Of a DNA stretch of 64,000 nucleotides, positions 14,701 to 60,879 are shown piece by piece. Location: the NCBI RefSeq assembly GCF_963676685.1, contig NC_092356.1, positions 54,002,001 through 54,066,000 of the forward strand. The letters run 5' to 3'. Numbering within the stretch: the first letter of the stretch is position 1; each line of letters opens with the position of its first letter. Both the position numbers and the translations under genes were made by a program. The notes below the pieces were generated by a model. It made no database searches and was not told the DNA's origin. It saw nothing but the letters and a program-made list of their open reading frames with translations. The DNA is from Mytilus edulis (taxonomy: Eukaryota).

Positions 14701-14778
14701 ATACATAGGCCAGGTATACAGAGGAATAACATGCTACAAAGAGGAACAGGTGATCAGTATGCAGAATGTCTTGTTACA

Positions 14779-24459: not shown

Positions 24460-24740
24460 GTGCTTTTTGTCCGCAATTCGCTTTTTGTCCGCTTTTGCTT
24501 TTTGTCCGATAATTTTGCTTTTTGTCCGAAACTTTTGCTTTTTGTCCGTTGCTTTTTGTCCGTTTTGCCTTTTGTCCGATTATTTTGCTTTTTGTCCGAA
24601 ACTTTTGCTTTTTGTCCGTTGCTTTTTGTCCGTTTTGCCTTTTGTCCGATTATTTTTCTTTTTGTCCGAAACTTTTGCTTTTTGTCCGTTGCTTTTTGTC
24701 CGTTTTGCTTTTTGTCCGATAATTTTGCTTTATGTCCGAT
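24460..24740 (+). repeat. Modular GCTTTTTGTCCG repeat with 70-bp higher-order unit
   Basis: Units start at 24511, 24581, 24651 and 24721, each made of four GCTTTTTGTCCG-type monomers. Confidence 0.9.
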
Positions 24741-24874
24741 ATAAAATGTGTATATTTTTGGCAGGTTTCATTTTGAACTTCAAACTACCATGTCCTTTTA
24801 GGAGTTAAATACAGACCATACTCACATTATAAATGATTTGTACATGAAATTTCATGTCTTTTACAATATATCGC

Positions 24875-27495
24875 ATTACCTCTAAAATGTCTCGAAGCAC
24901 TAATATCCTAGACCCGTAGGTGTTGGTCAACAGAGGGCAAGGGGAATACTCTTGTATATCCCTAAGTCTAAAAAAAACTATTGAAAGCTGGCTAAACTGA
25001 GACATACTCCAGGTAGGCCATTATACCAGAAGAAGAGGTAGTCAAACCCTTATAAATGGCTTATAGCACTTATGTCCTGGATCTACACGAGCTAATCAGC
25101 AACGAATTAAAAGGGGCATGAGTTTCGCCGGTATATCACGAAGTAAAAATAAACCTCATTATTGCCAGCTCTTCAAACTTAGAGATTCTCCACGTTGGCC
25201 ATTATACCAGAGGTATAGGTAGGCAGTGCCTCTTAAATGGTCCATGGGCCATGGCACTTATGTCCTCGACCCGTACGAGTTGGTCAGAAGAGGGTAAGGG
25301 GAATACTCTAGTATATCACACAGTCCACCAAAAATAGTGACGGCTGCCCAAACTAAGACATTTTTAGGTGCGCCCTTATACTAGATGTTGGAGTAGTCAT
25401 TCTCTTAAAAATGGCTCATACCACTTATGCTATAGACCCGAACGAGTTTGTCAACAATGAGTTAAAAGGGGGATGAATTAGCCCGGTATATAACGAAGTT
25501 GAAATAAACTGTTGCCCGCTGGCTAAACTAAGAAATTATCCACGCGGGTCATAATATGAGAGGTAGAGGAAGGGATTGCCTCTATAAAATGACCATGAGC
25601 ACGTATGACCTAGACCCGTACGAGTTAGTCAGCAAAGTGTAAGGTTGGTACCCTAGTATATAATAAAGTCGAACTAAACTATTGCTGGATGGCTAAGAGA
25701 TTCTCCGCGTGGGCCATGATACCAGAGGTAGAGGTTGTCATTGCCTCTAAAATGGCCTAAATCACTTATTCCCTAGAGAAGTACGCGGTATCATCAAAGG
25801 TTTTAAAAGGGAGTTGGAACCTCTGTTTACAAAGAAGTCGAAATAAATTATTGCCGGCTTGCTTAAGTACGAGATTCTCCAAGTTGGCCATTAATCCTAG
25901 GTTAAATGTGTGCATTGCCTTTTAAATGGCTGATAAAACTAACGCCCTAGACCTGTACGAGTTTGTCAGCAAAAGGTTAAAGGGGGGATGCGATGCCTCT
26001 TTTTACAACGAAAATATAAATTAAGCCGACTGGCCTAACTAAGAGATTCTATACGCGGGGTATTATATCAGAGGATGAGGTAGGCATTACCTCTACATAG
26101 CCATAACACGTATGTCCCAGACCCGTGTAAGTTAATCAGCAAAGGGTAAGGGGGGTACCTAAGTATATCACAAAGTCGAAATAAACTATTGCTGGCTGGC
26201 TAAACGAAGAGATTCTCCACATGGGCCATGATACCAGAGGTAGAAGTTGCCATAGCCTCAAAAATGGCCACTTATGCCGTAGACCCGTACCAGTGCTTCA
26301 GCAAAGTGTTAAAAGGGGGAGGTGGTATCTATGTTTACAACGAAGTCGAAATGAATTATTGCCGGCTGGCCAAACAAAGAAATTTTCAACATAGGCCATT
26401 ATAACAAAGGTAGTGGTGGACATTGCATCTAAAATGACCCATACTTCTTATTCCATTGATCTGTACGAGTTTGTCAGCAAAGGGTAAGGAGGGTAGCCTG
26501 GTATATAACAAAGTCGAAATAAACTATTGCCGGATGGCCAAAAATAAAAGATGATCCACGTTTATCATGATACCAGAGGTAAAGGTGGGCCTTGCCTTTA
26601 AAATGGTTTATAGCACTTATGCCAGCAAAAGGAAAGGAGGGTATTCTAGTATATCGCAAAGTCGTTATGAAATACTGCCGGCTGTTCAAACTACGAGATT
26701 CACCACATGGGCCATGCTACCAGAGGTATAGGTGGTCATTGCCTTTAAAATAGCCTATAGCACTTATATGGCATATACCCGTACGAGTTTGTCAGTAAAG
26801 AGCTAAAACGAGGAGGTGGTACCTCTGTTTACATTAAAGTCAAAATAACTGTAGCCGGTAGGCCAAACTCCGGGATTCTCTACGTGGATCATTATACCAG
26901 AGGTAGAGGTTTATTTCGACTTCGTTGTAAACAAAGGTAACACCTTTTATTTTTAACCCCTTGCAGGCAAAATCGTACAGGTCTTTGGAATTAGTGTTAT
27001 ATGCCATTTTAAAGGCAATTACCATATCTATCTCTGGTAAAATGGCCTACGTGGAGAACCTCTTAGTTTGGCCATCCGGCAATACTTTATTTCGACTTTG
27101 TTGTAAACAGAGGTACCATCTCCCCCTTTTGATTCATTATTGTCAAACTCGTACGGGTCTAGGGCATAAGTGCTATAAGAAATTTGTATGGCAATGCCCT
27201 CCTCTATCTCTGGTAAAATGGCCTACGTGGAGAATCTTAGTTTGGCCAGCCGGCAATTATTAAAGTGTATTTCGACTTCGTTGCAAACAGAGGTACCACC
27301 TTACCCTTTTAATTCATTGTTGTAAAACTCGTACGGGTCTTGGGCCTAAGTGATCTGTGCCTTTTTTAAGGCAATGCCTACTTCTACCTCTGGCATCATA
27401 TCCCACGTGGAGAATCTCTTGGCCAGCCGGCAATTGTTTATTTCGACTTTTTTATATACCAAGGTACTTCCCTAACCCTTTGCTGACTTACTCGC
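24875..27495. repeat. Degenerate ~172-bp satellite array with internal orientation switch at ~26910
   Basis: GACCCGTACGAG/AAGTCGAAATAAA/GAGATTCTCCACG recur every ~160-190 bp on + up to 26909, then as reverse complement to ~27495. Confidence 0.9.
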
Positions 27496-28283
27496 TGGCT
27501 TATCCCTTATTGTAAGTAAGTAAGTTCAATAAATATAAGACTATATGCCAGGTCTTTCTGACAACCAATTACAAACAAATTGGGGTTTATCTAATGAGGC
27601 TTTTCCCAGGATGCAATTGCTCGTAGACTGTATACAGTTGACCAAATAATCCACAAATTCCGCAAAAGGATCTTTTAATTATAGGCCATGTCCATTTAGA
27701 CATTAAGCAACAAAAGCCCAGCATGACCGATGCATTTGTCTTTAACATCTCCGATATTGATTCCGCGTGGCCTTCCAATTGACATGAGTGTCCATTGGTG
27801 TTCATTGTTAAACCTTTGGAGCTATATCAGTTTGTGTGGAAATTAAGAGCACGATGACCTTCCCTTGGTGATAACAACATGACCAACAACCATATCGTGT
27901 GTTACCAAAAGCCGTCAGCGATAGTCACACCGACAATTTGCTACCTTCGTGGACAAAAGCCTGGCTTTTCGCTGGATCCTAATTAACATCTAGTGTTGTC
28001 ACTACCATTTGCTGTAGAGATTTAGTTGCACAACATAACAGAAACATTCTTTGTAAATACTCTATGTTGATATTTTGACATTTGGAAGGGTTATATACCA
28101 ATTGTAGCCGAAAAATGATAATGAAACATTTCTGTTTAATATCGATCTATTGTTGGAATTGTAAATTTTCATATTCAATTTTTGTTTGTTTAAAGATGAC
28201 CATTTTAAATAAAGATTTTAATTTTTTAAAAAGCAAGTGTTAGACTTGTGCTTTTATTGCCACTCAGTTCATATAACCTGTCA

Positions 28284-29388
28284 TTTTAGTCGAGCCTGTA
28301 ACTTTTGTTGCAGAAAGCTCGACATATGAATAGTGATCCTGCGGCGGCGGCGACGGCGGCGGCGGCGTAAGTTAACTTCTGAAAAGCTTAATATTTTAGA
28401 AGGTGGAAGAATTTGATGCTTCATACTCTGTATATAGATGCCTCATGTTACGAAGTTTCTGTCAGTCACATGTCCAATGTCCTTGACCTCATTTTCATGG
28501 TTCAGTGATCACTTGAAAAAAAAGTTCAGAATTTTTGTAATGTTGAATTCTCTCTTATTATAAGTAATAGGATAACTATATTTGGTATGTGCGTACCTTG
28601 CAAGGTACTCATGCCCATCAGACAGTTTTCACTTGACCTCGACTTCATTTCGTGGACCAGTGAACAAAGGTTAGAATAAGTTTTGGTGGTCAAGTCAACA
28701 TCTCAGATACTATAAGCAACAGGGCTAGTATATTCGGTGTATGGAAGGACTGTAAGGTGTACATGTCCAACTGGCAGGTGTCATCTGACCTTGACCTCAT
28801 TTTCACGGTTCAGTGGTTATAGTTAAATTTTTCTGTCTTGGTCTGTTTTTCTCATACTTTATGCAATGAGTCTACAATATTTGTTGTATGGAATGATTGT
28901 AAGGTGTACATGTCTAGCGGGAAGATATCATCTGACCTTGACCTCATTTTCATGGTTCAGTGGTCAAAGTTCAGTTTTTGAGTTTTGGTCTTTTTATCTA
29001 ATATTATATGCCAAAGGTCACTATATTTGGTGCATGAAAATATCTTATGATCTATATATAAGTCTCCCAGGTTTTATTTGACCATGACCTCAATTTCACG
29101 GTTCATTGCACAGTGTTAAGTTTTTGTGTTTTGGTCTGTTTTTCTTAAACTATAAGTAATAGGTCAAGTATATTTGTTGTATCGAAGAATTGTTAGCTGT
29201 TCATGTCTGCCTGGTATGGTTCGTCTGACCTTTACCTCATTTTCATAATTCATTTGGTCTTTGTTTAGCTATCTTGGTTAATGTTAAGTTTATGTGGCAG
29301 TTGTAATAAATCTTTATACTTAGGGCTATCAACATAATATTAATGATGAGTAAAGTAGACGAGACATTTCAGTGTGTGCACTCTTGTT
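28284..29388 (-). mobile_element. HINE with (GGC)n microsatellite and ~150-bp internal tandem array
   Basis: GTCGAGC...GCTCGAC hairpin, GGC repeat, about six TGACCTCATTTTCATGGTTCA units, CTCTTGTT terminus. Confidence 0.85.
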
Positions 29389-29655
29389 TAAATGTGCTTA
29401 TTTATCCGAGTCCTGGACTGCATTCCAGTGGCTTTCATTCGTTTACTTTTGTGTAAATTTTATACAGATCAGTATTTTTTCAAATGTTTTACCAATATTT
29501 TAGCTGCATGTAACATCTTGAACACTCAGAACAGCAAAACAAAATTTAGATTTCAGAAATAAATAGCCTTTAGTCATCGACGAATTGCCGATGATTTCAA
29601 GAGTTGTTTCCGTTAAAGGATGATTCCTTTTTTTTTGTGCAATACTTGCTCTTTC

Positions 29656-30220
29656 GGAGGCTCGAGGGTAATTTCAGCAAAAATTTTATCATTTTTGTTT
29701 TCATTACAAATTTTATTTATTACACTATTAGTTATAACTTTATGAATTGGCTCAAAAATCAACCCAAAAAATCGAATGATTTTGGCCTCAGATTTATTTT
29801 TCAAATGTTTATATCACTGTAAAAGTTCAAAATTGTCTCCCTTTAGTGCAATAATGACATTTTGTTTTGGCATTAGAATTAAAATGTCTTTTTCAACTCA
29901 TCGGTGACCTATAGATATTTTTCAAATATGCTTTACGTAAACTAAACAGTTGTAAAATTAAATCGATTTCTGTAATTTAGTTCTTTTTTATTTCGATATA
30001 TATATCTCTCTATTTCTCCTATTAGTTCAACTAAAAAAAAAGTACCTTAACAAAAATGGTTGCTTCTTTCGAGGGCAGATTGTGAGATTAAGTGAACGAT
30101 AACCCCATGTTTTTATTTGATTTTTCTATTTAGTATATGATAAAAGTTCATCTATAGAAAAACAAGCAAAATCATACATGTATATTTAAAAAATAATGGA
30201 TTAATACCCTCCAGTCCCCT
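29656..30220. mobile_element. TIR element, TTAA-type (Kolobok-like) MITE
   Basis: GGAGGCTCGAGGGTA ... TACCCTCCAGTCCCC followed by TTAA; left TTAA not preserved. Confidence 0.5.
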
Positions 30221-30844
30221 TAACGACAAAATAAATAAATAAAACATTACGTTTAAGTATCACCTACAGTATTTTACAACCTCCATTGGTGATACATTAT
30301 ATGTATTTCTGCTGTTGTTTGATATAAGTTGTTGTCCTGAATAAACATCTTTATGCGTTTTTGCGTTTTTGCGTTTCAGTTTTTATTGTGAAATTTCTTC
30401 AATCAGCCAAGACAAACTTTAAATTTCGCCTTAACGATGTTTTCGCGAGAAATCCATGTATTATTAACGAATTACTACATTTAATCATTGTCTAGTGCCC
30501 TAAAATGAGATTTTCCGAGACGCTGGGTTTGAAATGGGATACCCTATTTAATTTAAACAATATTTGCAATCTTTTCAAAAAGATGCAGATGGGAATTTTC
30601 GTTCCTTATGAAAGTGTTCGCAAGGAGTTAAATTATAAACTCCTTATAGGATTATCAAAAAGCAACTATTAAGGACCCCCTTGGAATAAAGATCTTCCAA
30701 GACAACGTGTTCGAGAGTTTGAGTTTAATACATGACTTTTTAAAACTTCATGGACGGAGCAGGATTATCTTACTCTTTCAGTTAACCATACATCATCACA
30801 GTTGCATTTGTTCTTGTTGCTCAGATTTTAAATTTCAATGATTT

Positions 30845-31290
30845 CGTCCGAGACCACAATTGTCGTCCCTTGATTTTCGTTATTAGTCCCTAGTGATAAC
30901 AGTGGGTTACTTGCCAATAATTTTTATACCCCTTCCAAATTTATTTCTCCTTGTTTAATGCCTCACATTGTAAGTAGGGGGGGGGGTGAAATTACACTGT
31001 AAAAAAATTTGGGTCCAGAATTTTACAGGAAAGTAGTGATTTGGTCAAGCTGAAAAAGGTTAAAAATTAGCACTTCGGAAGCTGTCAAAAGATTTCAAGA
31101 CACCCTAAACACAAAATTGTCCATATTTTGAGTTAGACGCGATGAAGTTTTCTATAATTTTGATATAGTTTGTCCCAAAATTAGTACAACACACTGTAAA
31201 AGTTTCATTGAGAAAGCGCAGGTGGGATTTTTTAAATTTTCATTTATGTTCTAAAAGAAATGCACTACGAATTAATTGTGTTCTCGGACC
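30845..31290. mobile_element. MITE with 4-bp AWWT TSD (Sola1-like)
   Basis: TIRs CGTCCGAGACCACAATT / AATTGTGTTCTCGGACC; TSD ATTT at 30841-30844 and 31291-31294; inserted in a Penelope-like tail. Confidence 0.8.
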
Positions 31291-31550
31291 ATTTGTTTTG
31301 TGGACTGTTGTGTATCTTGTTGTTTTTCATTCCGCTGCGGCTTTGTTGGTTTGTTTCAACCCTTTTTAGTGTGATTATCCTTTGGTACACTTTGCCTCTC
31401 TCTTATATATGATATCGCAATAATTATATATATGTAAGCGTTCATATACATTTATATGGATACAATATTGAATTAAAATAGATATAATAATTAGATGAGT
31501 GAAAAAAAGAAAATGAAGTTATAATTGTACGTGTGAGGAGTTGGCATTCT

Positions 31551-31862
31551 TATAAAAAAGAAGATGTGGTATTATTGCAAATGAGACAACTATCCACAAA
31601 AGACCAAAATGACACAGACATTAACAGCATTAGGTCACCGTACGGCCTTCAACAATGACGAAAGCCCATACAGCATAGTCAGCTATAAAAGGCCCCGATA
31701 AGACAATGTAAAACAATTCAAACGAGAAAACTAACGGCCTTATTTATGTCAAAAAAATAAATGAAAAAACAAATATGTAACACATAAACAAACGACAACC
31801 ACTGAATTTACAGGCTCCTGACTTGGTACAGGCACATACATAAATAATGTGGCGAGGTTAAA
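31551..31862 (-). mobile_element. SINE-like repeat family A
   Basis: Reverse complement of 32625-32942; same family at 49981-50096 and 60579-60879. Confidence 0.85.
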
Positions 31863-31989
31863 GTCTTTTACACTAGAAATATTTTAGATCTTGTTATAGA
31901 GACTAATTCTTATTCATTCTGGTCGTAAGTTAGTCTGTCATCCTCAAACGTGTGAGCAATGGTGTACGTACACCAATTTGTAGAATACA

Positions 31990-32266
31990 TGGGATATTCA
32001 AAGACTTAAACGAACGTTAAGTCTCAGAGGCATGACTTTTTATTAGTTGTTAATGGCTTTGAAATAGCTGTCAGATAACTGCGAGTACTCTCAGATCTGT
32101 TCATTGTGACTTTTTGTGTCGGGATGTATAAGTACCCGGCCACGTCCACTTGTATTTGTGTCTATCTGATGAGTTAAGCCTTTTTCAACTGATTTTTATA
32201 GTTCGTTCTTATAATGTACTGTTATACCACTGTCCCAGGTTAGGGGAAGGGTTGAGATCCCGCTAA
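31990..32266 (+). mobile_element. Probable 5' part of family A repeat
   Basis: Ends ...CCAGGTTAGGGGAAGGGTTGAGATCCCGCTAA, supplying the GGGG/AGGG strands complementary to the CCCC/CCC segments of family A heads. Confidence 0.5.
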
Positions 32267-32624
32267 TTTTAAAACTGGACAAGTCAGCTCGGAAAGAAAA
32301 GTATGACCGAGCATTATATGTTTTAGTGATTATAAATTGGTAGTAGCTATTTGGTATAAACAAATAATTCACTGCTATTTGCAAGTACAAAAATATATAA
32401 TATAAATTATGACATAGACGTTTTTGCATCTGTTCTACATTCCATGGATTCAGACTGAAATTTCTGGATCATTTAATCCTTTGCTGTCAGTTTTTTTCTT
32501 TTCTCTTGGTTATGATGGCATGAAAAAACACCCTAAAGCTTGTAGAAACAAAAAACTAAGCAATTTTCAGATACTTAAAACCCAATGACACGGAATTTCA
32601 CGGTTATATGAGAATTAGTGTAAT

Positions 32625-32942
32625 ATGTTTAACTCCGGCACATTATTTAAATCTGTGCCTGTCCCAAGTCAGGAGCCTGTAATTCAGTGGTTGTCGTTTG
32701 TTTATGTGTTACATATTTGTTTTTCGTTCATTTTTTTACTTAAATAAGGCCGTTAGTTTTCTCGTTTGAATTGTTTTACATTGTCTTATCGGGGCCTTTA
32801 TAGCTGACTATGCGGTATGGGCTTTGCTCATTGTTGAAGGTCGTACGGTGACCTATAGTTGTTAATGTTTGTGTCATTTTGGTCTTTTGTGGATAGTTCA
32901 ACTTGTCTCATTGGCAATCATACCACATCTTCTTTTTTATAT
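32625..32942 (+). mobile_element. SINE-like repeat family A
   Basis: ATGTTTAAC..GCCTGTCCCAAGTCAGGAGCCT...CATACCACATCTTCTTTTTTAT. Confidence 0.85.
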
Positions 32943-33959
32943 GCTCGAAACTTTAGAATAGTTTAGAAATTTATCAAATCAAATAATCCTTGAGTGATGG
33001 TTTCGTTATTGAAATTCTAAATTGATGTTTAACCGCGCTAAATATTATATATGATAATCATACGAATAAGTCAGGGACGGAGTTTCAATCTGTAATTCAA
33101 TAGTTGTTGTTTGTTTCTGTATTTGTTTGTCGTATAGTGTTTTGTAAATCAATGGTTTTCTCGTTTGAATAGTTTTAGCATTATGTTAAATGGTGTCGGC
33201 GTTTGCTACATGTGGAAGTGCACACATTTACGACATGTTATTGCTTAAACGCACAGTTTCTTCTTCCCGCTAATAATATATAGTCACCATTTGCACTTAT
33301 ATGCGAATGGCCGGTTGACAGTCGCTCCAAAATATTTTGCAACATTTCAGTTAAAAAAAAACTTTTTTAAGTCTGGTAATATTTTCGTCATATTTCCAAC
33401 AACTTTATTTTTCTTAAACATTACAAATATTACAAATATAACAAACAAACAAACTTCATTTTTGGAACACTATCACAAAGTTTACGTAATACATGTGTAG
33501 CTATTTATTTAGATAAACTGTATTAATCCATACATTTCGGAATTATTTAGCAACTATATCCAAATGACGAGGAAGTTCGAGGTTATTCAAGTAATAAGAT
33601 TAAGGAAACTTTGGTTAACACAGCAGCATTTTCAACAAAGTAGTTTATTTTTGTTTGACAAACTCGAAAAGAGGGGGAAAAGTAATAAAATGGTTACTTA
33701 AGCATTTACTTAATTTCTATCACGAAATAAATGCGTTTAATATTTTAGATACAGATACAATATAGTGCATTCGTAAATGTAAAACACTTTTTAATAGAAA
33801 ATTTAAAAGAGATACATCAACAGTGTTTATTTTAGAATTGCTCAAGTCTGTAGGGCTTATTCCCGATTGTCCCACTTTTTTTTAAAATTAAGAGCTCATA
33901 TTGTCCCACATGAAAAGTTTTGACTGGTCCACATTATTTTATGAGGCGAAATGTTCTTA

Positions 33960-34240
33960 TCCCTTGTTAGATTGTCTCTATGGTTTTGTTTCAGATATAT
34001 AAGCCAAAATCTACATTTTATGCATGCTCTTCTTTTAGACATTGCGGCCATCTTAATTATTGGGCGGGGTCATCGGATACTTTTTTGAAACTAAATACCC
34101 TAAGGATGATTTTGGCCATGTTTGCTTTAATTTTGCCAGTAGTTTCAGAAGAGAAGATTTTTGTAAAAATTAATGACGACGACGAATAATGAGAAAATGA
34201 GAAAAGCTCACTTAGTCCTATGGTCCAGGTGAGCTAAAAA
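33960..34240 (+). mobile_element. HINE 3' fragment
   Basis: (GAC)n followed by AGCTCAC...GTGAGCT hairpin and AAAAA, abutting the modular repeat. Confidence 0.7.
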
Positions 34241-34489
34241 GCAAAACGGACAAAAAGCAACGGACAAAAAGCAAAAGTGTCGGACAAAAAGCAAAATTAT
34301 CGGACAAAAAGCAAAACGGACAAAAAGCAACGGACAAAAAGCAAACGTATCGGACAAAAAGCAAAATTATCGGACAAAAAGCAAAATGGACAAAAAGCAA
34401 CAGACAAAAAGCAAAAGTATCGGACAAAAAGCAAAATAATCGGACAAAAAGCAAAAGCGGACAAAAAGCAAATCGCGGACAAAAAGCAC
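34236..34489 (-). repeat. Inverted copy of the modular GCTTTTTGTCCG repeat
   Basis: CGGACAAAAAGC monomers; same head sequence as 24460 in opposite orientation. Confidence 0.9.
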
Positions 34490-35179: not shown

Positions 35180-37609
35180 CTATCTATAAATTTTAGTGCA
35201 ATTACCCTTTAATAATATAGTACAAAAAATGAGGTGGGAGGTACCAATGGAATTTTCAATCTCATTGGTCGATGACAAACTAACAACGCCATGGTAAAAA
35301 AAACAAACGAATAACAACCAAAACACAAAAGGGGAAAACTTAAGACCGAGCAACACGAACCATATACCATATAAGCAGGTCAACTTCTACTCCACATGAC
35401 AACGTACCAAATATTTTAGCAACGTTGAAAGCTGAATCTTGAAAAACTGTTTAAAATATATTTTTGTCACTGATGATGTCAATATTTTCATCATATTTTT
35501 GTACTAACGCAATATTTATAGATTATTTCATCATTTCCTCTTTCCATATCTGCCCTATTTAATCTTCCCGAGATCTTAATATATGTCAGAGGGCTTTATA
35601 AAATCTTTAAACATCAGGAGCCAAGTTCAAACTTTTACAACAAATTTGTCGCGGGGTTGCTATAAATTTAAATTATTACATTAATTGTCGATAAATGAGG
35701 CATGCAGTATAGAATCAGATTCCACAACAAAACGTCATCATGTCTTTCATTTGCGTACTAGTGCACACTAAAATCGTTGACGGACCACAGACTTAACTTC
35801 TCAACATACAAACGGTACAAACGTCCGGCTCGTGTTTGGAAAACACCCACAACCTCTATTCTTATATTAATTTACGCGAAAATTCAAACCCTTTCATATA
35901 TTTCATAGGAACATGACAACCCATTTATATTTTCAAGCTATCATGACATCTTATTTCAATGACATGTTTACCACAACGGATTATTAAATATTATTAGATA
36001 AGAAGATCAGAACATAGTTTTTACTGTCATATTTATAGAAAATGAACATGTATAACCCATTGGCATGTGAATTCTTATCCATTGACATGTCACCTCCGTG
36101 AAAACTGCATCCCATTGATATATTTGACATTCCAAAAAAGTTCAGTCTAATTCGAATATAGAACTCTTGATTTCGTTATACTCCATATGAAATCAAAGTT
36201 CTATATTTTATGGAGTTTAACGAAATCAGAGTTCTATACTTTAATTAGACTGAAAAAATTTACCCCTACCAGCATATATATACTGTGTATAATTTTCTAT
36301 AAGGAAGAGACAACAGCGTGGATACAGACAGTGGGAACACTGATAAAAAATGTTATCCTGCCAACAGGAGACGTTTTATTGATCCTGTCAAGATAACACT
36401 TCGCCAATTTTGTACATTTTCTTGACATATGCTTAACTGCCGGTCACTTGATATAATACAATATACAATAAGACAGAATATTGCACCATAACTTTTCGTT
36501 TTGTTCTATGGAAACTATAACGTTACTATACAATAACAACTATGTATTTGAAATGCAAAATTTGAAAGAAAAAAATCAAATATGAAGTAGTTGTTGGGCA
36601 AAGATTTTTATATACAGCCTAGGAAAACGCAAAATAATTGAAACACTAATGGAAAATGTGAGAGGCGAACATCATGTTTAGTTATATCATGTACATGTAC
36701 ATCGTTATCCTACAAAATACTTGCCGTGTAAAACGGTTTGCTCGAAATATTCTGCCCAAGTCCAAACTGGAACTCTTATTTTTCCTTGAAGAAAATGATA
36801 CAACGATACAGATCTGTCTTTCAGGTTTCTATTCAGATAATATTTATTTAGTTGTTTCTCTTTTCTATATGTTTCCTAGGTAGCATACTAAATGGCAGGT
36901 GCGTGGTAAAAATTCGGGGACCAACACGTTTCTCAACCTCTTCTGGTTGTCTTAGATATTCTAGATTTAATTCCCACATTGGTCCGTGGGAGTTATATTC
37001 TGTTTTCTGTGTCAAAAGCATGGATATTACCTCACGTACCCAATGGGCTCCTTGAAGAAAAAAATGTTAATACACATAAAAATGTTTAGTGATATATTTT
37101 TGTTAGTTGACTCCCCCACCCTTTATTTGTGTCCGAATTTGCAAATGCAATTATTTCTCCCATATTTGCTGTTTGCATTTGTTCATTTTGTTTTCCAAAT
37201 ACACTCTTTCTGATTGGTCGGATCCCATCAGAGTCCATTAGAACGTTTAGAAATAAAGGATGGATTCTTTTTCAATGTCCATCAATTTTTGGTCAATGTG
37301 TTCGATTCCCAGTATCTAAAAATAGGTTTGGCGAAAAATTGGTGTAGGCAGGGAGCGCCAAAAATTGTATTCCCATGGAAGTAAAATTAGATAATGATAA
37401 AATTTCTTGTGAGAATGATGAAGTCTTAAGGTATCTTGGATTTTGAAATAGCAGATAACAATCGGTCTTCATTTTTAATGAACTTTGAAAATTTCAAGTT
37501 GTAGTATAATTATTCATTTGTAAGACTTTTGTCTGAGTTTTGATGTTAATATAGAAAATTATGTGTTTTATCATATTTTTACGGCTGTAGTTTACAACAA
37601 CAAATAAAA

Positions 37610-37836: not shown

Positions 37837-38087
37837 TTGTTTTTTGCAAATTAAAATCACGGAAAAATGAGGCGATCATTGTTGTTGACAAAATTTTAAA
37901 TGACGTCAGGGACCTTGTGATCTAAGGCGGATGGAATTACAGACGGACAGCACAATGATGGCTTTGAATTACACGAATTACTTTACCAGTACACTTAAAA
38001 TAATAGCAATTGAGTACAAAACAAAATAGTATTTTTATACTTTGTATTGGTAATTGATAAAAAGTCAAAGAATACAATACTAGACTA

Positions 38088-38386
38088 TCTCATAAACATG
38101 TTTAACCCCGCCGCATTTTTGCGCCTGTCCCAAGTCAGGAGCCTCTGGCCTTTGTTAGTCTTGCATTATTTTAATTTTAGTTTCTTGTTTACAATTTGGA
38201 AATTAGTATGGCGTTCATTATCACTGATCTAGTATATATTTGTTTAGGGGCCAGGTGAAGGACGCCTCCAGGTGCGGGAATTTCTCGCTACATTGAAGAC
38301 CTGTTGGTGACCTTCTGCTGTTGTTTTTTCTGTGGTCGGGTTGTTGTCTCTTTGACACATTCCCCATTTCCATTTTCAATTTTATT
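38088..38386 (+). mobile_element. SINE-like repeat with family A head and a different tail
   Basis: Head TTTAACCCCGCC..GCCTGTCCCAAGTCAGGAGCCT; tail pieces recur at 13925-13975 and 59762-59810 in reverse complement. Confidence 0.75.
38103..38144 (+). ncRNA. 3' half of twister-like core (cleavage site to P4)
   Basis: UAA CCCC GC CGCA-UUUU-UGCG CCUG UCCCAAGU CAGG A compared with canonical UAA CACU GC C..G CCGG UCCCAAGC CCGG A; the GAGGG strand is absent in this copy. Confidence 0.5.
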
Positions 38387-43150: not shown

Positions 43151-44247
43151 AATTTGTACTACATGTAGTATATCAAACATAATCATACACACGTTGTGTA
43201 ACAAATTTAAATAAACAAATGGTAACTTACTATGTAACCGAACTACAACTAGACAAATCCAATTGCACGTGGTTGCTATCTATTTATATTGTTATCTATG
43301 TTTATATCGGGTTATATGACCGTCTGCAGTCTTCGGAGGTCATCCGATGGTTAATTAGATGATGTACAGACAGACATACACACGACATGTTGATACATAT
43401 TATCGAGTCCATGCATTGTTGATTATCTATTTTTTACTTTATGTAATTTGGATATACGTTTTAGTATGTTGTATATCAAATACATGTATGAGAATTTGAG
43501 TAAATCGGTGATCATGAATTTGACATATAATAGCCCTTTAAAAATTTTATTAACGTAATATGAAAATTTTAACACTGTCGTTTCCCTAGCTTTTGTCCAG
43601 TCGTGCATTTAAAACAAAATATTTACCATTAGCATTAAATAATTATCAAATGATCGTGAGGCGAGCTTTTATATATTTCTCCTGGCATCATATATAATCA
43701 TTTGATACTGAAACAAAAATAACTGGCAAAGCTGGAGCAAACCTTCCACACCTTTCAGCGCTTTAGCAACACGAATTAATATAAACCGATATTAATATCC
43801 TATATTTTGGAAAGGTATCTCGCTCGTTGTGGTATCATTTAATTATTTTTTAAAGCAACCCTACAATCACGCTTATATTGTATTAAAATACATTATAATT
43901 GAGCATCAGTGGTTGTTCTACATGTGTTTAAATCATTCGTACAAAATCACATACTGTAGATTAATTTTTTCGTGATATCAGTTTTCGTGGATTGAGAAAA
44001 AACTTTCATTTTTTATGACATTTGATATCTTAGTTTTGATTAAGTCTGCATTCGAAACTATAGACAATTTATAATTGATATGATTATTTTGAAATCACAG
44101 AAAATAATTTCTCGAAAATGAAAGAAGATAGGGTGGGATATAATGAAAAAGCAACCTAATGCCAAAACGCAAAAGTAGAGATATTCAAATAAAATAGATA
44201 AAACACATTTTTTAAGAGATTCATAGTCAACACATGCCCTTCAACAC

Positions 44248-45105
44248 TAGATAATTATTAGGTGCCAATACAATATGTTAAGCTCTATAGTTTAGATAAT
44301 GATTACTAGGTGCCAATACAATATGTTAAGCTCTATAGTTTAGATAATGATTAGGTGCCAATACAATATGTTAAGCTCTATAGTTAAGATAATGATTAGG
44401 TGCCAATACAATATGTTAAGCTCTATAGTTTAGATAATGATTAGGTGCCAATACAATATGTTAAGCTCTATAGTTTAGATAATTATTAGGTGCCAATACA
44501 ATATGTTAAGCTCTATAGTTTAGATAATGATTAGGTGCCAATACAATATGTTAAGCTCTATAGTTTAGATAATAATTAGGTGCCAATACAATATGTTAAG
44601 CTCTATAGTTTAGATAATGATTAGGTGCCAATACAATATGTTAAGCTCTATAGTTTAGATAATTATTAGGTGCCAATACAATATGTTAAGCTCTATAGTT
44701 TAGATAATGATTAGGTGCCAATACAATATGTTAAGCTCTATAGTTTAGATAATAATTAGGTGCCAATACAATATGTTAAGCTCTATAGTTTAGATAATGA
44801 TTAGGTGCCAATACAATATGTTAAGCTCTATAGTTTAGATAATGATTAGGTGCCAATACAATATGTTAAGCTCTATAGTTTAGATAATTATTAGGTGCCA
44901 ATACAATATGTTAAGCTCTATAGTTTAGATAATTATTAGGTGCCAATACAATATGTTAAGCTCTATAGTTTAGATAATTATTAGGTGCCAATACAATATG
45001 TTAAGCTCTATAGTTTAGATAATGATTAGGTGCCAATACAATATGTTAAGCTCTATAGTTTAGATTATGATTAGGTGCCAATACAATATGTTAAGCTCTA
45101 TAGTT
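44248..45105 (+). repeat. Homogeneous 45-bp minisatellite, 19 copies
   Basis: Unit TAGATAAT(G/T/A)ATTAGGTGCCAATACAATATGTTAAGCTCTATAGTT. Confidence 0.97.
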
Positions 45106-45140
45106 TGATTTTGCTATTTCAAGGTTCAAACACATATCAA

Positions 45141-45535
45141 TACACCACTTTCGAGTTCATCCGTCACCGGAAAAAAACTCTTCAATTATGCGCGCCTTTG
45201 TGACGTCATTTACCAGATAGAGGGGATCGCCTGTATCCCTGCACTATTTACGTTCATCAAGCGTTCATCAAGCGTCTTAGTGATTGTCATTGTGTAGGAT
45301 AAACTAGAAATAATGGTTGTTCTGTAGGTACTTAATGACAATTCCCGAATGACAGCAGTGCTGATTGTCAATTTTTGAGAATTCAATTTGCCGTATAATT
45401 CGTACAATATAGAATAATAGTTTTCCAACCACTCGCTCAACATTGAATGGAAGTGACGACGCCCCTAAACACACAAATGACGTTCACTAAAACAAGAGTT
45501 TTTGACGGAAATGCATCGAACTCGAAAGATGTCTA
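45141..45535. mobile_element. ~395-bp TIR element (MITE)
   Basis: TACACCACTTTCGAGTTC ... GAACTCGAAAGATGTCTA, flanked by CAA / TTG. Confidence 0.7.
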
Positions 45536-46141: not shown

Positions 46142-47562
46142 CCCTTACAGAACTGAAATGTTTGCAGCAGATCTGCTGCAAAGTTGCTGCAGGTCTGCTG
46201 CAAACAAAACGCTTGCAGGAACCCTTTGAATAATGTTTGCAGATGTTTGCAGCTACATGTAGCTGCAAACCTCCTGCAAACATTGCAGCTTTTTGCTGCA
46301 AGCTTGCCGCAAGTATGTTTGCAGTAAGATTGCAGGAAAAACTAAAATATAAGGGATGTTCGCAGCTAGATTGCAAGAATCTTTGACAATTTTATATGTT
46401 TGCAAGAGCATTGCAAGAAACTTCATAAAACGACTGAGCATGCCTATTGGTAACTTCCTGGAAGATAAAGATTTGAAATTTGAAAATGTTGATGTAGTTT
46501 GTGTCATGATATATATTAGTGTTCAGGGAGGTATTATAGTTTGGCAATTTAACAGATTAGTTTTCAAAGACATTATTTGTAAGTACAAATACATCGTAGG
46601 ATAAATTTAAACTTATGAAATTCGTTCCCTCCACAGATATCTGCATGAAGGTTAACCATTCCGTTTTCAAATATGTTACAATGCCATATGCAGTACTCCC
46701 TCGTATGGTTAGAGATTATAACCTACAAAATATGTAAGTCTAGTTAAACGTTGTGAAATTTTCAATCTAACTAGCAGTATATATATTACACAATCTTTTA
46801 GACTCATATAATTTTTCCTGTTTGTGTAGTATTGTCAATTTTGATGATCCAATACCTATTAAGTTTACTGGTTGGTAGATTCTTATAGACTCTATATATA
46901 TATATATGCATCTAAATTATCTTTGAAAATAAATTTCAAATAAACCTTTAGATTCATGCATGCATGTATATATAATTTATTTGAGAACATACTTGGAATT
47001 GATTAAACTTATTAAATATGTTAAAGGTATAAACTTATGCTATGATAATTTTTCAAATGATAAAGTATAAATTGAATTATTTTATAAATGGATGTAACAT
47101 AACTTTTTTAGATTTGCTGTGTAATATAATGTAGATAAAATGATGTGTACACAACATGACATTGCATGGTTAATTGTATAACAGATTGATTTGAATAAAA
47201 ATGTTTGCCGCAGTTTCGAGCAAGCACGCAGGAGAAAGATTAATTTGCATAAATATGTTTGCAGCAGGTCTGCGGCAAACTCTTATTTGCATATAAATGT
47301 TTACAGCAGGTCTGCAGCAAACACGCAGGAGAAAGATTAATTTGCATAAATATGTTTGCAGCAGGTCTGCGGCAAACACTCATTTGTATATAGATGTTTG
47401 CAGCAGGTCTGCAGCAAACACTCATTTGCATGGTAAATTGTTTGCAGCAGACCTGCAGCAAACACGCCGCAAACGCGGACTCTGTGTTCGCTGCAAGTCT
47501 GCAGCAAGTTCGCAGCAGACTTGCAGCAAATGTTTCCAGGAGACTGCTTTTTTCAGTAAGGG
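46142..47562. mobile_element. EnSpm/CMC-like non-autonomous transposon
   Basis: TIR CCCTTACAGAA / TTCAGTAAGGG, TA on both sides, dense subterminal TTTGCAGCA/CTGCAAAC repeats at both ends. Confidence 0.8.
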
Positions 47563-47739
47563 TAACCTATTACCTGAGGAGAGCAGTAACTATCTGACCT
47601 ATACATTGGTGATCGAATCATTTATTGATACAGTATAACTTGCTGACAGAAGTAATTGATTGATCTGTATCCTGTTGATAAAATTCACTGTTTGGTCTAT
47701 ATTCTTTTCACATAATTCATTGATTGGCATCAACTTGGT

Positions 47740-49280
47740 AACAGTAGTCCCTGTTTTGACCAATACAATATCGACAAAAGAATTTAACTATCCATTGCTA
47801 TGATAACAAAAGTTATTGATTGAACTTCACCCTCATAGACATAGACATTACAATCATGATGACAGATTATTTATTGATTGACCTTAAACCCTGGTAACAG
47901 AAGTCATTGACTTATTAATATCCTGGTTACAGGTCAATGTCTAACTTTAACCCTAAAGACGAAATTCGCCTAAATACAGATGACTAAAATCATTGATTTG
48001 CCTATAGCCTGGAATCAGAAGTCATCGATTGACCTTAACTCTGATAACGGGAATTCGCCTAAATACATGTGACAGACGGGAGTGATTTACCTTTACCCTG
48101 ATAGAAAAGGCCGTGAATGACCAATATCCTAGTGACAAAAGGCAGTGATTGACCAATACCCTGGTGACAAAAGGCAATGATTGACCAATACCCTGGTGAC
48201 AAAAGGCAGTGATTGACAAATACCCTGGTGACAAAAGGCAATGATTAACCAATACCCTGGTGACAAGAGGCAGTGATTGGCAAATATCATCTGGTGACAA
48301 GAGGCAGTGATTAGCAAATATCCTCTGGTGACCATAGGCAGAGATTGTACAATGCCCTGGTGACAAAAGGTAGTAATTGGCCGATACCCTGGTGGTAAAG
48401 GGCACTGATTGACCAATACCCTGGAGGCAAAAGGCAATTATTGACAAATCGTTTGGGACCAATTGTGGTAATGATCTATACTCTTGTGATAGAAGGCAGA
48501 TTGACATTAACCCTGATGATAAAAACGCCAATTTCGCTTTTACCTGGTGACGAGAGACAGTAAATGAACTATGACCAGATGACAGAAGGTAGTAAATGAC
48601 CCGTACATTGGTGACAGAAGCAAGTGCTTGACATATTTTCTGATGACAAAAGACAGTGGTTGACGAAAACATGGTGACCGACAGTGGCGAATGATCTATA
48701 CCCGTGTGATGGAAGGCAGTGATTGACCCATACCTTGATGACAGAAGGCAGTGGTTTACCTTTACTCTGATGACAGAAGACGCTGATGGAACTATTACCT
48801 GGTGACAGAATGCGTGATTGACCTATACCCTGATGACTAAAGGTGATGAATGACCCACACCTTTGTGACAGAAGGCAGTGATTGACGTAACAACGGTAAC
48901 CGACAGTGGCAAATGACCCATACCTTGATGCCAGAAGGCAGTGATTGACCTATACCTAGGTGAAAGAAGGAAATTCTGCAGTGATTGACAATAAAAAGTA
49001 AAAACACAAAAATACTGAACTCCGAGGAAAATTCAAAAAGGAAAATCAAAAATCAAAAGGCAAAATAAAAAGTCCAAACACATCAAACGAATGGATAACA
49101 ACTGTCATATTCCTGACTTGGTACAGGCATTTTCTAATGTGACCGTATTTGGTGAAGGATCTATACCCGTGGGACAGAAGGTAGTGAATGACCCATAATA
49201 CCCTTATGACAGAAGGCAGTGAATGACCCAAACATTGCCACCAGAAGCTTAAGACAATAATTAACATTTACCCTGAAAAC
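47740..49280 (+). repeat. Degenerate ~32-bp minisatellite interrupted by a family B fragment (48990-49140)
   Basis: Core unit GTGATTGACCAATACCCTGGTGACAAAAGGCA, best preserved at 48145-48270. Confidence 0.88.
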
Positions 49281-51669
49281 AAAGCCGCTGATCGCTAGTC
49301 ATTTAACGTTCTGTGATAAATGTTTCATAGAGGTAATCTAGGGATCTTTTTATGCAAATAAGAATAAGTATAAAAATGTTGGCAAACAAGGAAAAAAACG
49401 AATGATCTTTGTAAATTACTTGTAATAAAAGATTGTTATTTTTTAGAACAAAAATGCCGTAAAATTTGAAAACAAGTGAGCTATACGTGTTACAGATGGT
49501 ATGCTCAGCTCATTATGATTCTAATTAATTTCCATGCACATACTTACACTGAGAGGATCGCCGTACATGATAGAAAATATTTTGTTCGACTTGTTCTTGG
49601 TAGCTGCAATCATTTTGTTCGTGTAATTAAACCATCCAGTATACAAGTTACATGTATCTAAATAAATTGAAAAGTTATCATCATTGTTATATTAATATCT
49701 AAATGGTATTTACGTTGCACCGATGCCCTGGAATATTAAAAAACAAGTGTGAGTTATCTTACCTGCTCACAAGGAAAAACCTGACGTAGAAATGGGACCT
49801 TATGCTCTTAACACCTACCCTCGCCTGGTATATTGATAAGACTCAACTGCCATTTGTAGTCTTCAAGCCTGCAGGTGGTTAGTGTAAAACTTGGTTTCTA
49901 AAATACTTTTATTGACAGAATATATTTATATAGTTCTTGTTTTATAATTAAAATTAAAAACTTGATATAAAGTTATCAATTGGGCTTTGCTCATTGTTGA
50001 AGGCCGTACGGTGACCTATAGTTGTTAATGTCTGTGTCATTTTGGTCTCTTGTGGACAGTTGTTTCTTTGGCAATCATAACACATCTTCTTTTATATACA
50101 TAATAGTTTACTGAACTTGGAAGTCACTTGGAAGATCATTACTGTCGGTTTGATAAATTTTTTAAAGACTAAAAGAAGGCAAACATTGAAAAAAGTAAAA
50201 CATGAAAGTAAGAATAAATGAACAACACAAATGACAAAAGAAAATCCGTGTTGCTTTATTGAACCAGAAATGTAGTTATTAGATATCATTTAAATATGAA
50301 CTTTCATTTTAGAGATAAATATATGCATTTTACTCTTATAGTCTTGAATTCATATAAAATATTAGCAATATAACACATACTAGAATATACTCTGCACTGT
50401 GTCCTCATTTGTGTATAATCGAGTGCCCAATACCAATCTTCATCTTTCAAACTAACTAGTTTTAGACGACGGTAAAAAACGTTGAAGTGTGCGTTTGTGG
50501 AACACAATTCTACGTCAGAACGTTAAGCAAAGGAACGGCTATCTTGATTGGAATCATTTTTATATCAAGGCTGAGATAAACAAATTAAATGATAGAATTT
50601 TTATATTTTGGTAATTGGAGTTGGATAATTTATAAAGGAATACAGACAGATGACTTCCAAATGTCGATTAGACACAATGACATTGTCAGTTCAAGGATGC
50701 AGGTATCCAGCTACCCCATAGGACAGTTAAACGACTTTAAACTCGAGGTTTTCTCTGGTAATGGAAATAATATGAATCATACGCAGTGAATCAAGGTGAT
50801 AATACTTTCCAGATCATTTATTCATAATACCGATTTCGTTGGTGGGGTTCGTGTTTCTCAGTTTTTAGTTCTCTATGATGTGATTTGTGTACTGTTGTTT
50901 GTCTTTTAGGTTATGTCGCTTTTTCGTGTTTTTGTTGCCACAATCATTTTTTTTTCCATTTTTGCGTTTGAATATCATTTTTGTTTCTTTCGCCTCTCTC
51001 TCTTTCTCCGAATAGATATGTATATTAAGGGGGTACCCAACATTATACCCCCCAAAAAAAGCCTGTCGTGTAATTTTTCTTATTTTTCTCTCATTGATAA
51101 ATTAGTCCAAGCTAAACATCTTGTAAAATTTTAAAAAGATATGAACCGTTGGTTTAAAAGCTATGGCAACTCAAATATGGCATCTTTTAGTACCGTTAAT
51201 TTTATTACATGCTAGTATCGGCCAAATTTGGAGTATATGTTGATTATTTTACAAATTAATCTTAAATTGACAATATCATAGTTAATAATGATAACTGAGG
51301 CGAATATCAGTTCACTGATAACCTTAAAGTTTACTTGTAAGTTTTTTATTCTGGATTTAAATTTTTGTCCGAACTAAAAAAAAATGGGTATCAAAGTCAG
51401 CCATAAAAATGAATGTAATGGTTCTATTATTTGAAGAAGACATTTTTTTTTTAAATAAAATGTGTCGTTTAATTTTTTTTTAAAACTAACCATTTGGAGT
51501 TCTATACCAGTCGGTTCTTCTTGCAAACATTTATAAAAATTTAACCGTCAGATTTTTTTGTATTGAAATTTAAAAAAATACGCACACACCCTCAAATTGG
51601 CTTAATAAATGAGAGCAAAATCCATTTTGATGGTACATAATGGCCATTACTTTTTAGTCTTTTGATCTA

Positions 51670-53455
51670 GGCCTTAGGTATCAAAACTATTGAAATTTTG
51701 TTACGTATCAATATTTTGAATATAAGGAGGACATGCTGGCACCCTAAATTTATGTGCAACAAAAATTTGTTGCTTTTGTAGTATTGTAATATTGCTGTCC
51801 ATAGTATTATACATTGAATCCTGACATAAAAAATATGGCTGACTTACTATGCGGGTATACTGATTTACAAATTAAAGTCCACATATGGTCAGATTTGGTC
51901 AATTTGGTCAAATCATTTTGTTGTACAAGTCAGCTTGAGGTATCAAAACTACTGAAATTTTGTTACGTATCAATATTTTGAATAAAAGGAGGACATGCTG
52001 GTACCCTAAATTTATGCGATCAAAAATTTGTTGTCAGTGTATTGCAATATTGCTGTCCATTGTATTATACATTGAATCCTGACATAAAAAATATGGCTGA
52101 AGTACTATGCGGGTATATATGGTACATTGTATATAGATTTACAAATTTAAGTGCACATATGGTCAGTTTTGGTGGAAACGGTCAAACAATTTTGTTGTGC
52201 AAGTCAGCATGAGGTATCAAAACGACTGAAATTTTGTTACGTATCAATATTTTGAAAAAAAGGAGGACATTCTAGCACCCTAAATTTATGCAAAAAATTT
52301 TTTGTTGTTATTGTATTGCAATATTGCTGTCCATTGTATTGTACATTAAATCCTAACACAAAAGAATATGGCTGATTTACTATACGGGTATACATGGTAT
52401 ATAGATTTACAAATTAAAGTGCACATATGGTCAGTTTTAGTTGATGCAGTCAAATAATTTTGTTGCACAAGTCAGCTTGAGGTATCAAAACTACTGAATT
52501 TTTGTTTTGTATCAATATTTTGAATAAAAGGAAGACATGCTGGTAACCTTAATTTATGCAAACAAAATTTTGTTGTTATTGTATTGCAATATTGCTGTCC
52601 ATTGTATTATACATTGAATCCTGACATAAAAAGATGGCTGATTTACTATATGGGTATATAGATTTACAAATTAAAGTGCAAATATGGTCAGTTTTAGTTG
52701 ATGCAGTCAAATAATTGTGTTGTACAAGTCAGTATGAGGTATTAAAACTACTGAAATTTTGTTATGTATCAATATTTTTAATAAAAGGAGGACATGCTGG
52801 CACCCTTAATTTATGCAAACAAATATTTGTTGTTATTGTATTGCAATATTGCTGTCCATTGTATTATACATTTAATCCTGACATAAAACATATGGCTGAT
52901 TTATTATGCGGGTAAATAGGATATATAGATTTACAAATAAAAGTGCACATATGGTCAGTTTTGGTCAACGTTATCAAATAATTTTGTTGCACAAGTCAGC
53001 ATGAGGTATCAAAACTATTAAAATTTTGTTACGTATAAAAATTTTGAATAAGAGGAGGACATGCTGGAATCCTAAATTTATGCGAACAAAAATTTGAAAA
53101 AATATGGCTGATTTACTATGCGGGTATATAGATTTACAAATAAAAGAGGGACGAAAGATACCAAAGGGACAGTCAAACTCATAAATCTAAAACAAACTGA
53201 CAACGCCATGGCTAAAAATAAAAAAGACAAACAGAAAAACAATAGTACACACGACACAACATAGAAAACTAAAGAATAAACAACACGAACCCCAAAAAAG
53301 TGCGTATACGGTCAGTTTTAGTCAACACGGTCAAATAATTTTGTTGTACATATCAGCAAGAGATATCAAAACTACTGAAATTTTGTTACGTATCAATATT
53401 TTGAATAAAAGGAGGACATGCTGGCACCCTAAGTTTATGCGAACAAAAATTTGCA
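51670..53455 (+). repeat. ~265-bp tandem array (about 6.5 units) with Penelope-like tail inserted at 53143-53297
   Basis: GGTATCAAAACTA motif near 51677, 51939, 52213, 52481, 52738, 53005 and 53361. Confidence 0.92.
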
Positions 53456-58019: not shown

Positions 58020-58530
58020 TAACATGCAAAAAAACAAAATTGAGAGCCTAGATTCCATGTTTAATCACATGGGACCTAGCCTCTCGGAACAAGCGAAACA
58101 GGAATTGAGAGCCTTGTTCCCATGTTTAATCACATTGAACATAGCATCTAGAAACATGCAAAAACAAGCGAAAAAGGAATTGAGAGCCTAGATTCCATGT
58201 TTAAACACATAGGACCTAGCCTCTAGGGACAAGCGAAAAAGGAATTGAGAGTCTTAGCTTGTTTCTATGTTTAAACAAATGGGACATAGCCTCTAGGAAC
58301 ATGCAAAAACAAGCGAAAAAGGATTTAAGGGTTTAGATTCCATGTTTAAATTAATGGATCCTAGTCTGTAGGAACAAGCGAAAAAGGAATTAAGGGCCTA
58401 GATTCCATGTTTAAACACATAGGACCTAGCCTCTAGGAACAAGCAAAAAACAAATTGAGAGCCTAGTTCCCATGTTTAACCATTTGTGACCTAGCAGCTA
58501 GGAATAAGCCTAAACGGAATTTAGAGCTTT
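58020..58530 (+). repeat. ~65-bp minisatellite, about 8 units
   Basis: GAATTGAGAGCCTAGATTCCATGTTTAA..ACAT.GGACCTAGCCTCTAGGAACAAGCGAAAAAG. Confidence 0.9.
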
Positions 58531-58534
58531 AATC

Positions 58535-59762: not shown

Positions 59763-59811
59763 ATACTAGTTCAGTGATAATGAACGCCATACTTTTTTTC
59801 CAAATTGTACC

Positions 59812-60578: not shown

Positions 60579-60879
60579 TTTAACCCGTCTGTATGTATGT
60601 ACCTGTCCCAAGTCAGGAGCCTGTAATTCAGTGGTTGTTGATTTTTTATGTCCGACATTTTTTTCCGTTTATTTTTTGTACATAAATTAGGCCGTTAGTT
60701 TTCTCGTTTTAAAAGGTTTTACGTTGTCATTTTAGGGCCTTTTTTTAGCTGACTATGTGGTTTGGGCTTTTCTCATTGTTGAAGGCCATACGGTGACATA
60801 TAGTTGTTAATTTCTGTGTCATTTTGGTCTCTTGTGGAGAGCTGTCTTATTGGCAATCATACCACATCTTTTTTTATAT
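60579..60879 (+). mobile_element. SINE-like repeat family A
   Basis: Colinear with 32628-32942. Confidence 0.85.

Follow-up and report, generated by a model that had tools for sequence, protein, structure and literature searches.

A predicted type-P5 twister variant, with two palindromes in the place of P1, in the pseudo-LTRs of Naiad Penelope-like retroelements

The twister ribozyme class was reportedly described by Roth et al. in 2014. The twister features used for comparison below are those given in parts of PMC5408937 and in section 17 of PMC8501958; the first of these, a review, states that twisters without P1 cleave at almost the wild-type rate, and the second calls cleavage by P1-less twisters inefficient. 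Among retroelements, metazoan Penelope-like elements (PLEs) carry hammerheads with a palindromic loop 3, which are active as dimers and for which a circular product has been proposed (PMC4209133, in part). The hammerhead of an anole PLE needs protein to cut, is dispensable for insertion in vitro and yields no reads ending at its site, according to sections of PMC11167929. One review, in the part drawn on here, assigns twisters to RTE elements and hammerheads to PLEs. The Naiad clade of PLEs is described in the relevant sections of PMC8557442 as lacking canonical hammerheads, which section 15 of that paper takes as a sign that PLE ribozymes may be dispensable or parasitic.

The window analysed here is a 64,000-nucleotide stretch of the Mytilus edulis genome (assembly GCF_963676685.1, NC_092356.1, positions 54,002,001 to 54,066,000, forward strand), and all positions are counted from its first letter. 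The plus-strand repeat at 38087–38384 is the 5′-truncated 3′ end, a pseudo-LTR part, of a Naiad-type Penelope-like retroelement that is very common in this genome. It belongs to what we call family A and is 95.7% identical to a natural full-length copy, L191, over 299 nt. Natural family-A copies (L191, L192, L194 and L195) have a unit of 3,965 bp and about 1,008 codons once TGA is passed, encoding a protein with an N-terminal GIY-YIG domain with an upstream Cys motif, a C-terminal RT and no C-terminal endonuclease (motifs identified by eye). The same copies show, again by eye, the KR block RKKRSHGRR, the CxC motif TSCNCS, GPKY, and DKA within ADKAANN; searches of Pfam and of solved structures with the RT gave no significant match. 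We used the diagnostic features of Naiads in section 6 of PMC8557442 for assignment: the 3,965-bp main body falls within 3.4–4.4 kb, copies are 5′-truncated, partial tandems occur, and an inverted upstream copy is present (family B, 31552–31862). Three full-length insertions (L191, L192 and L209) carry the fold described below in both of their pseudo-LTRs.

A Naiad-type RT also lies upstream in families B and C (71% and 42% identical to A, respectively), and an RT frame lies upstream in families C2, E and G. Family D had no RT upstream in the loci examined, so that non-autonomous derivatives may exist. In family A, 5′ ends are evenly spread and enter the RT reading frame, with no fixed 5′ end, and the 3′ end is fixed: of 91 copies sampled by genome position through an exact 36-mer, a few of them with common junctions, 80 end 282–284 nt past the predicted cut. 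The 300-bp “SINE” is the commonest 5′-truncated remnant of a Naiad. As a separate observation on coding, family A has four in-frame TGA codons at Cys positions (L191:2724–5729), at the same places in five near-full frames. A hairpin of the form AUGA-stem-AAA-ministem-UGA, which looks SECIS-like, follows its stop codon (L191:5790–5850). Published mussel Naiads are absent from the selenoprotein list of PMC8557442, as far as the portion drawn on goes.

Within the window, every string quoted by the initial annotation, which had proposed a twister core shared by several repeat families, was verified in place. In the family-A copy, UAA occupies 38103–38105, P2 (5′ strand CCCC) 38106–38109 and the T2 strand GC 38110–38111, and the P3 hairpin CGCA-UUUU-UGCG follows at 38112–38123, so that this block as a whole spans 38106–38123. 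P4 with its loop L4 (U-CCC-AA-GU, in which CCC is the T1 strand and GU the T2 strand) reads CCUG-UCCCAAGU-CAGG at 38124–38139, and the P5 3′ strand, AGCCUCUGGCC, occupies 38140–38150, beginning with AGCCU (38140–38144); in intact copies this helix has 10 bp, with a duplex energy of −17.3 kcal/mol. An intact family-A copy aligned to Rfam Twister-P5 places the predicted scissile bond, with the cut site as given in part of PMC8501958, at 38103/38104, within U^AA. Upstream lie the palindrome Y (AACAUGUU, 38095–38102), whose end coincides exactly with the end of the P1 5′ strand of a normal twister, and the 3′ remnant of a palindrome X (38087–38092), which reads UGAGAUCUCA in intact copies. All of these lie on the plus strand. 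Because the copy starts inside X, the P5 5′ strand, P2′, GA and T1′ are absent, and a whole ribozyme cannot fold here in cis.

The other fold copies of the window belong to families B and C. Related heads occur at 31862 (minus), 32625 and 60579. The minus-strand family-B end at 31552–31862 is inverted and 5′-truncated and holds the 3′ half of the fold only, and an older, 5′-truncated plus-strand family-B copy lies at 60579–60879. A further family-B copy is split: a 3′ UTR at 32016–32267 (plus) contains the fold's 5′ half, namely P5, P2′, a GA that has become AA at 32247, T1′ and palindrome X; a 353-bp insertion at 32268–32620, which siblings of this composite locus lack, divides the ribozyme; and the 3′ half and terminus resume at 32621–32940 (plus). 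The initial annotation had read 32237–32251 as the strands missing from the copy at 38088. They are a real 5′ half of a fold, and they belong to the family-B copy that resumes at 32621; joining them to the 38088 copy was rejected, as the two are of different families. Their GGGG-A-AGGG is a mutated GGGG-GA-GGG in which the conserved G of GA has become A at 32247; the uninterrupted sibling L033 keeps a G at the equivalent site. As a 14-mer pattern alone, GGGG-A-AGGG shows no excess over chance in the window (18 of 100 shuffles).

The CAUUU/AAAUG version of P3 comes from two further copies, at 14074–14186 and 49092–49140, both minus. The first lies in a family-C 3′ end at 13973–14707 (minus), which scores 78 bits with our own covariance model, family C being in its training set, and is by eye near-identical to the published Naiad_Mgal 3′ end. 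It contains the sole complete fold of the window, at 14084–14183 (minus), with X (UAGCUAGCUA) at 14151–14160 and Y (AACCUGGUU) at 14139–14147. The second lies in a 5′-truncated family-C copy at 48987–49140 (minus) that retains only P3, P4, L4 and the P5 3′ strand. A 16-mer core occurs six times exactly in the window and seven times with up to three mismatches, against 0.33 expected with three mismatches allowed. Across the 1.37-Gb genome, the P4–L4 core CCTGTNNNAAGTCAGG has 50,743 occurrences, compared with 29 for the reversed control pattern, and the exact family-A 36-mer has 5,022 copies. Short minus-strand pieces at 13926–13976 and 59757–59810 match the middle of the family-A tail, and RNA reads reveal another family that has the last 52 nt of family A in common.

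Several other features of the window were noted. Four tandem units of about 350 nt at 58514–59752, three with type I hammerhead matches (the best at 33 bits, 59685–59728, just below the cut-off), look like the known mussel non-LTR retrozyme. A stretch of about 10 kb at 24460–34489 is bounded by 254-nt inverted arms (94%) of short tandem units, and its inner parts, including the two family-B fragments, recur with 97–99% identity at at least 40 loci; it is probably a non-autonomous DNA transposon with captured Naiad tails. Long near-perfect hairpins at 36156–36239 and 47394–47465, with below-cut-off matches to microRNA families on both strands, are likely small inverted-repeat elements. Tandem arrays occupy 44164–45228 (45-nt unit), 47635–49247 (32 nt), 51612–53453 (about 267 nt) and 63303–64000 (28 nt).

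Intact copies share the order P5–P2′–GA–T1′–linker–N^AA–P2–T2–P3–P4–L4–P4′–P5′, which is that of a type-P5 twister, and the fold is common to seven families in this genome and to metagenome contigs selected by RT. We aligned 12 rows, comprising one natural copy for each of eight forms from the genome (A, B, E, D, D2, C, C2 and G) and four metagenome forms. In these rows, 94.1% of cells were paired and 11 of 16 pairs had changed on both sides; no shuffle of 500 reached this pairing score, a count that is not a probability since the rows are mutually related, and partners slid out of register were 25–41% paired. The pseudoknot T1 was 100% paired, with double changes in all three of its pairs, and P4 had them in two of four. 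The pseudoknot T2 was also 100% paired, with one-sided change only in the 12-row alignment; a double change in T2 was seen by eye in the published Naiad_Scon. The core residues, namely GA, the A+1 region, and the U and AAG of L4, are invariant in 12 of 12 rows. P5 strands form stronger duplexes with their own-family partner than with that of other families (means of −11.9 vs. −5.0 kcal/mol). There are local departures: T2 has a G-U pair in family A, T1 contains a single U-U in Naiad_Mphi and in Naiad_Scon, and in C-type families P2 is a 3-bp helix with a bulge, which accounts for eight unpaired cells. For this C-type P2, we rejected the MAFFT register U^CA and adopted C^AA, in which P2 has 3 bp and a bulge, since its first pair covaries (U-A/C-G).

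Twister-P5 (RF02684) is also the best Rfam family for family A, at 23.1 bits (E 0.0043 on 171 bases) under a cut-off of 37.6, and one form, L515, exceeds that cut-off (38.8 bits). RF02684 gave no match in the window and none genome-wide, the genome-wide search having no positive control. The initial annotation's main claim, a P5-permuted twister module common to several repeat families, is thus supported by pairing and covariation, and 84 of the 91 family-A copies join the 5′ and 3′ segments, matching at least 51 bases upstream of the predicted cut and spanning GGGG-GA-GGG and P5. Its sketch of the fold had the P5 permutation right and recognised neither the absence of P1 nor the two palindromes that replace it. 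A real twister-type fold is almost certainly present, and the twister reading holds as a variant that departs from the class in P1, not as a plain member.

That departure is consistent. The bases due to form P1 oppose each other as U-U, U-U in all 12 rows, and the linker of 20–23 nt holds instead palindrome X, of 6–10 nt, followed by palindrome Y, with zero to two unpaired central bases. Both palindromes stand in the place of P1 in all 14 forms parsed, two of which were held out, and Y ends at position −2 in every one of the 14. The X centres comprise five different self-complementary sequences (GAUC, GCGC, CUAG, CAUG and GUAC). Summed palindrome length far exceeds that of 20,000 shuffles for X (102 vs. 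a mean of 36.7 and a maximum of 64) and also exceeds it for Y (88 vs. 54.4 and 74). Our covariance model does not score the palindromes, and its two held-out matches (L479 and L525) both carry them in new sequences; 72 and 176 of 200,000 shuffles did as well in the two cases. As a hairpin, the linker is worth 0 to −1.5 kcal/mol, compared with −10.6 to −19.6 kcal/mol for an X:X duplex of two copies and −0.5 to −7.4 kcal/mol for Y:Y. A self-complementary loop centre would be useless in a lone hairpin, so that symmetric pairing of two copies appears to be the simplest reading, with a dimer geometry that is uncertain because Y is weak and X the stronger duplex. We discounted on logical grounds a dimer in which X and Y are each fully paired while both cores close in cis, since its two closed loops would be interlocked.

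The fold is tied in position to the RT. In 80 metagenome loci that had been chosen solely by their RT protein, without use of the RNA motif, a descriptor found seven matches, all in sense and downstream of the RT, and none in 191.5 kb inside or upstream of the RT or in 244.8 kb antisense. The covariance model identified 10 of the 80 loci at E < 1e-4, again all in sense and downstream of the RT; four were in the training set, four are near-copies of A or C, and two (L479 and L525) are new. The other 70 loci gave no match, which suggests that many Naiads do without the fold, bearing in mind that 27 of the 80 loci have less than 300 nt downstream of the RT and 53 have at least 300 nt. On an RT tree, the twister rows need three to four gains or losses; this tree, made by a quick method from 82 rows (rows below 200 aa dropped, no named references, many rows too short downstream to score), speaks for patchiness only and not for an order of events.

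Published elements extend the distribution. By eye, the fold with both palindromes is found in Naiad_Mgal, Bpla, Mphi and Scon from bivalves and in Mley from a comb jelly, with new compensatory pairs in T2 (CC/GG) and T1 (CGA/UCG). This inspection covered the last 450–600 nt of 28 of 54 published consensi, with names taken from file order, and diverged or more upstream forms could escape it. The published Naiad consensi of four bivalves and a comb jelly therefore hold the fold unannotated, and none of the five is flagged HHR_core in the portion of the PMC8557442 table drawn on. The published Naiad_Mcor, as far as its available sequence goes, stops about 300 nt upstream of the family-C twister (L207, L089), and its consensus thus seems to be cut short. 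Other Naiad ends differ: those of oyster, ark shell, pearl oyster and acorn worm (part of the PMC8557442 supplement; L485, L490, L492, L501 and L503) have another conserved 3′ motif in common, and several more contain pieces of a hammerhead core in rearranged order. No twister was seen by eye in the portions of these two groups of ends that were inspected.

We looked for traces of cleavage in copy ends and in reads. None of the 91 position-ordered family-A copies starts at A+1, and all 91 extend upstream of the site. Of the copies that hold the 5′ UTR, 1 of 90 starts at A+1, plus L191, whose upstream repeat starts exactly there; the latter is a single case and is not counted as support. Genome-wide, 14 matches have two non-consensus bases before the site, about eight of them true junctions, vs. 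5,022 exact copies, in a count that has no control position. RNA-seq reads on family A (7,381 reads in both orientations, from 6% of one raw run) form no pile of ends at the site; both orientations are what copies within host transcripts would be expected to give. Among 90 copies that include the start of the 5′ UTR and align cleanly, 46 continue upstream through the upstream site (several with common junctions; one further row was badly aligned), and such longer-than-unit copies are explained equally well by read-through of tandem genomic copies as by a circle. That the fold would cleave in some setting we consider likely.

On balance we favour the reading that the Naiad pseudo-LTR carries a conserved type-P5 twister fold that is predicted to self-cleave and replaces the hammerhead, and that it likely works as a two-copy dimer through the palindromes that stand in place of P1. 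This reading is built on the identity of the element, the position, fold and covariation of the module, the missing P1, the two palindromes, and the presence of the fold in both pseudo-LTRs of full-length insertions. A read-through RNA would contain two fold copies about 4 kb apart. X of one copy would pair or kiss with X of the other, nucleating the dimer, and the two copies would swap strands, Y pairing with Y as a common P1. Both sites would then be cut at N^A, releasing one unit-length RNA, which would be ligated into a circle with one uncut site restored. The RT would begin 282 nt downstream of that site and copy through it, frequently going round more than once, which may give the 5′-truncated and partial-tandem copies that are seen. 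For the parts of this scheme our confidence differs: that two-copy pairing matters we hold to be an even call, and the circle as template is plausible, though we place it slightly below that. A stricter version is more tentative, namely that this is an ancient Naiad twister variant, present from comb jellies to mussels, that is active only as a strand-swapped dimer joined by two palindromes, so that cutting to unit length and circularisation would be confined to transcripts with two pseudo-LTRs. If it holds, Naiads would have arrived independently at the dimer-gated logic of PLE hammerheads, and dimer-gated cleavage would be a core step of Penelope-like transposition, not a passenger.

Three other explanations were weighed. 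The fold may be an active monomeric twister that simply lacks P1, with the palindromes serving RNA dimerisation in the RT complex or forming a symmetric site for a protein on RNA or DNA. We regard this as unlikely on the whole, even though P1 is reported to be dispensable in part of PMC5408937 and the near wild-type rates given there mean that a monomer may be active and that dimer dependence is not required. It also agrees with the invariance of all core residues in the 12 rows and with the PLE protein modelled as a dimer in a section of PMC11167929. However, the palindromes take precisely the place of P1, and their sequence varies freely while the linker stays at 20–23 nt, a pattern more in keeping with pairing than with a protein site. 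Moreover, a monomer that cut freely would break most templates 282 nt from where the RT starts, yet 91 of 91 copies extend upstream of the site.

That the fold is catalytically dead or repurposed, with a structural role in the pseudo-LTR such as RT binding, priming or RNA stability, seems to us distinctly improbable. The lack of a copy-end or read-end signal at the site is what such a fold would leave, and insertion of the anole PLE in vitro can do without its hammerhead by the account in part of PMC11167929; against this, both catalytic positions (the G of GA and A+1) are preserved across the mussel families and the comb-jelly consensus even as the stems vary, and L515 scores above the Rfam cut-off. 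The idea from which this work began, that the module is common to independent, otherwise unrelated SINE families with different tails, we consider very improbable. Most genomic copies are indeed short pieces of the 3′ region that terminate at a fixed position, and the loci of family D that were examined lack an upstream RT, but families A, B and C all run upstream into a Naiad-type RT, evenly spread 5′ ends enter the RT frame in A, B, C, C2, E and G, and an upstream RT contradicts the idea for six of seven families. With no fixed 5′ head and with 5′ ends spread into the RT frame, the SINE reading was rejected. We thus return to a Naiad-borne twister variant, predicted to cleave and likely paired between two copies, as the preferred reading.

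We did not find the link between twisters and Naiads in print; the search lay outside subscription papers, and such sequences may be present, with no link to Naiads drawn, in the sequence lists of Roth et al. 2014 or in the PMC8501958 supplement. The word “twister” occurs zero times in the portion of bioRxiv 10.64898/2026.07.22.740005 that was available. Should the reading hold, it would add more than 50,000 twister-derived loci in one genome, missed by Rfam, and a natural form of twister without P1, and it would offer an RNA of 100 nt on which PLE RNA processing could be directly tested.

Compared with known systems, the Naiad fold is closest to the type-P5 twister (RF02684, clan CL00120), its best Rfam match. 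It has the same order, P2′–GA–T1′–[P1 slot]–N^AA–P2–T2–(P3)–P4–L4–P4′ with P5 closing, the same invariant GA, AA and L4 residues, and two pseudoknots that both pair; it differs in having two palindromes instead of a Watson-Crick P1, in an L4 that ends AAGU, in a T2 of mostly A-U or G-U, in the bulged 3-bp P2 of its C-type forms, and in that family A scores below the cut-off. The twisters of Schistosoma Perere-3 and RTE LINEs, as presented in parts of PMC8501958 and PMC7761336, likewise have a degraded P1 and sit inside a retrotransposon. However, they belong to type P1 and are found at the 5′ end, where they set the 5′ junction, whereas the Naiad twister is of type P5 and internal to the 3′ pseudo-LTR, near the 3′ end, and its copies do not begin at the cut. 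With the Naiads of PMC8557442, in the sections drawn on, the elements described here agree in the order of their domains, in CxC and DKA, in length, and in showing truncation, partial tandems and an inverted upstream copy, and the in-frame UGA of family A resembles that of the clam selenoprotein Naiads; in contrast, that paper reports no ribozyme at this place, and “twister” appears zero times in its main text and supplement. The canonical hammerheads of PLE pseudo-LTRs (parts of PMC4209133, PMC6765202 and PMC11167929) offer a parallel in design: each pseudo-LTR has one ribozyme on the sense strand, a palindrome marks one helix that is too weak in the monomer, and cleavage as a dimer followed by a circle has been proposed. 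Naiads differ in ribozyme class and in having two palindromes vs. one. That another class of ribozyme occupies this slot, again with a weak helix plus palindrome, argues that regulated self-cleavage is selected.
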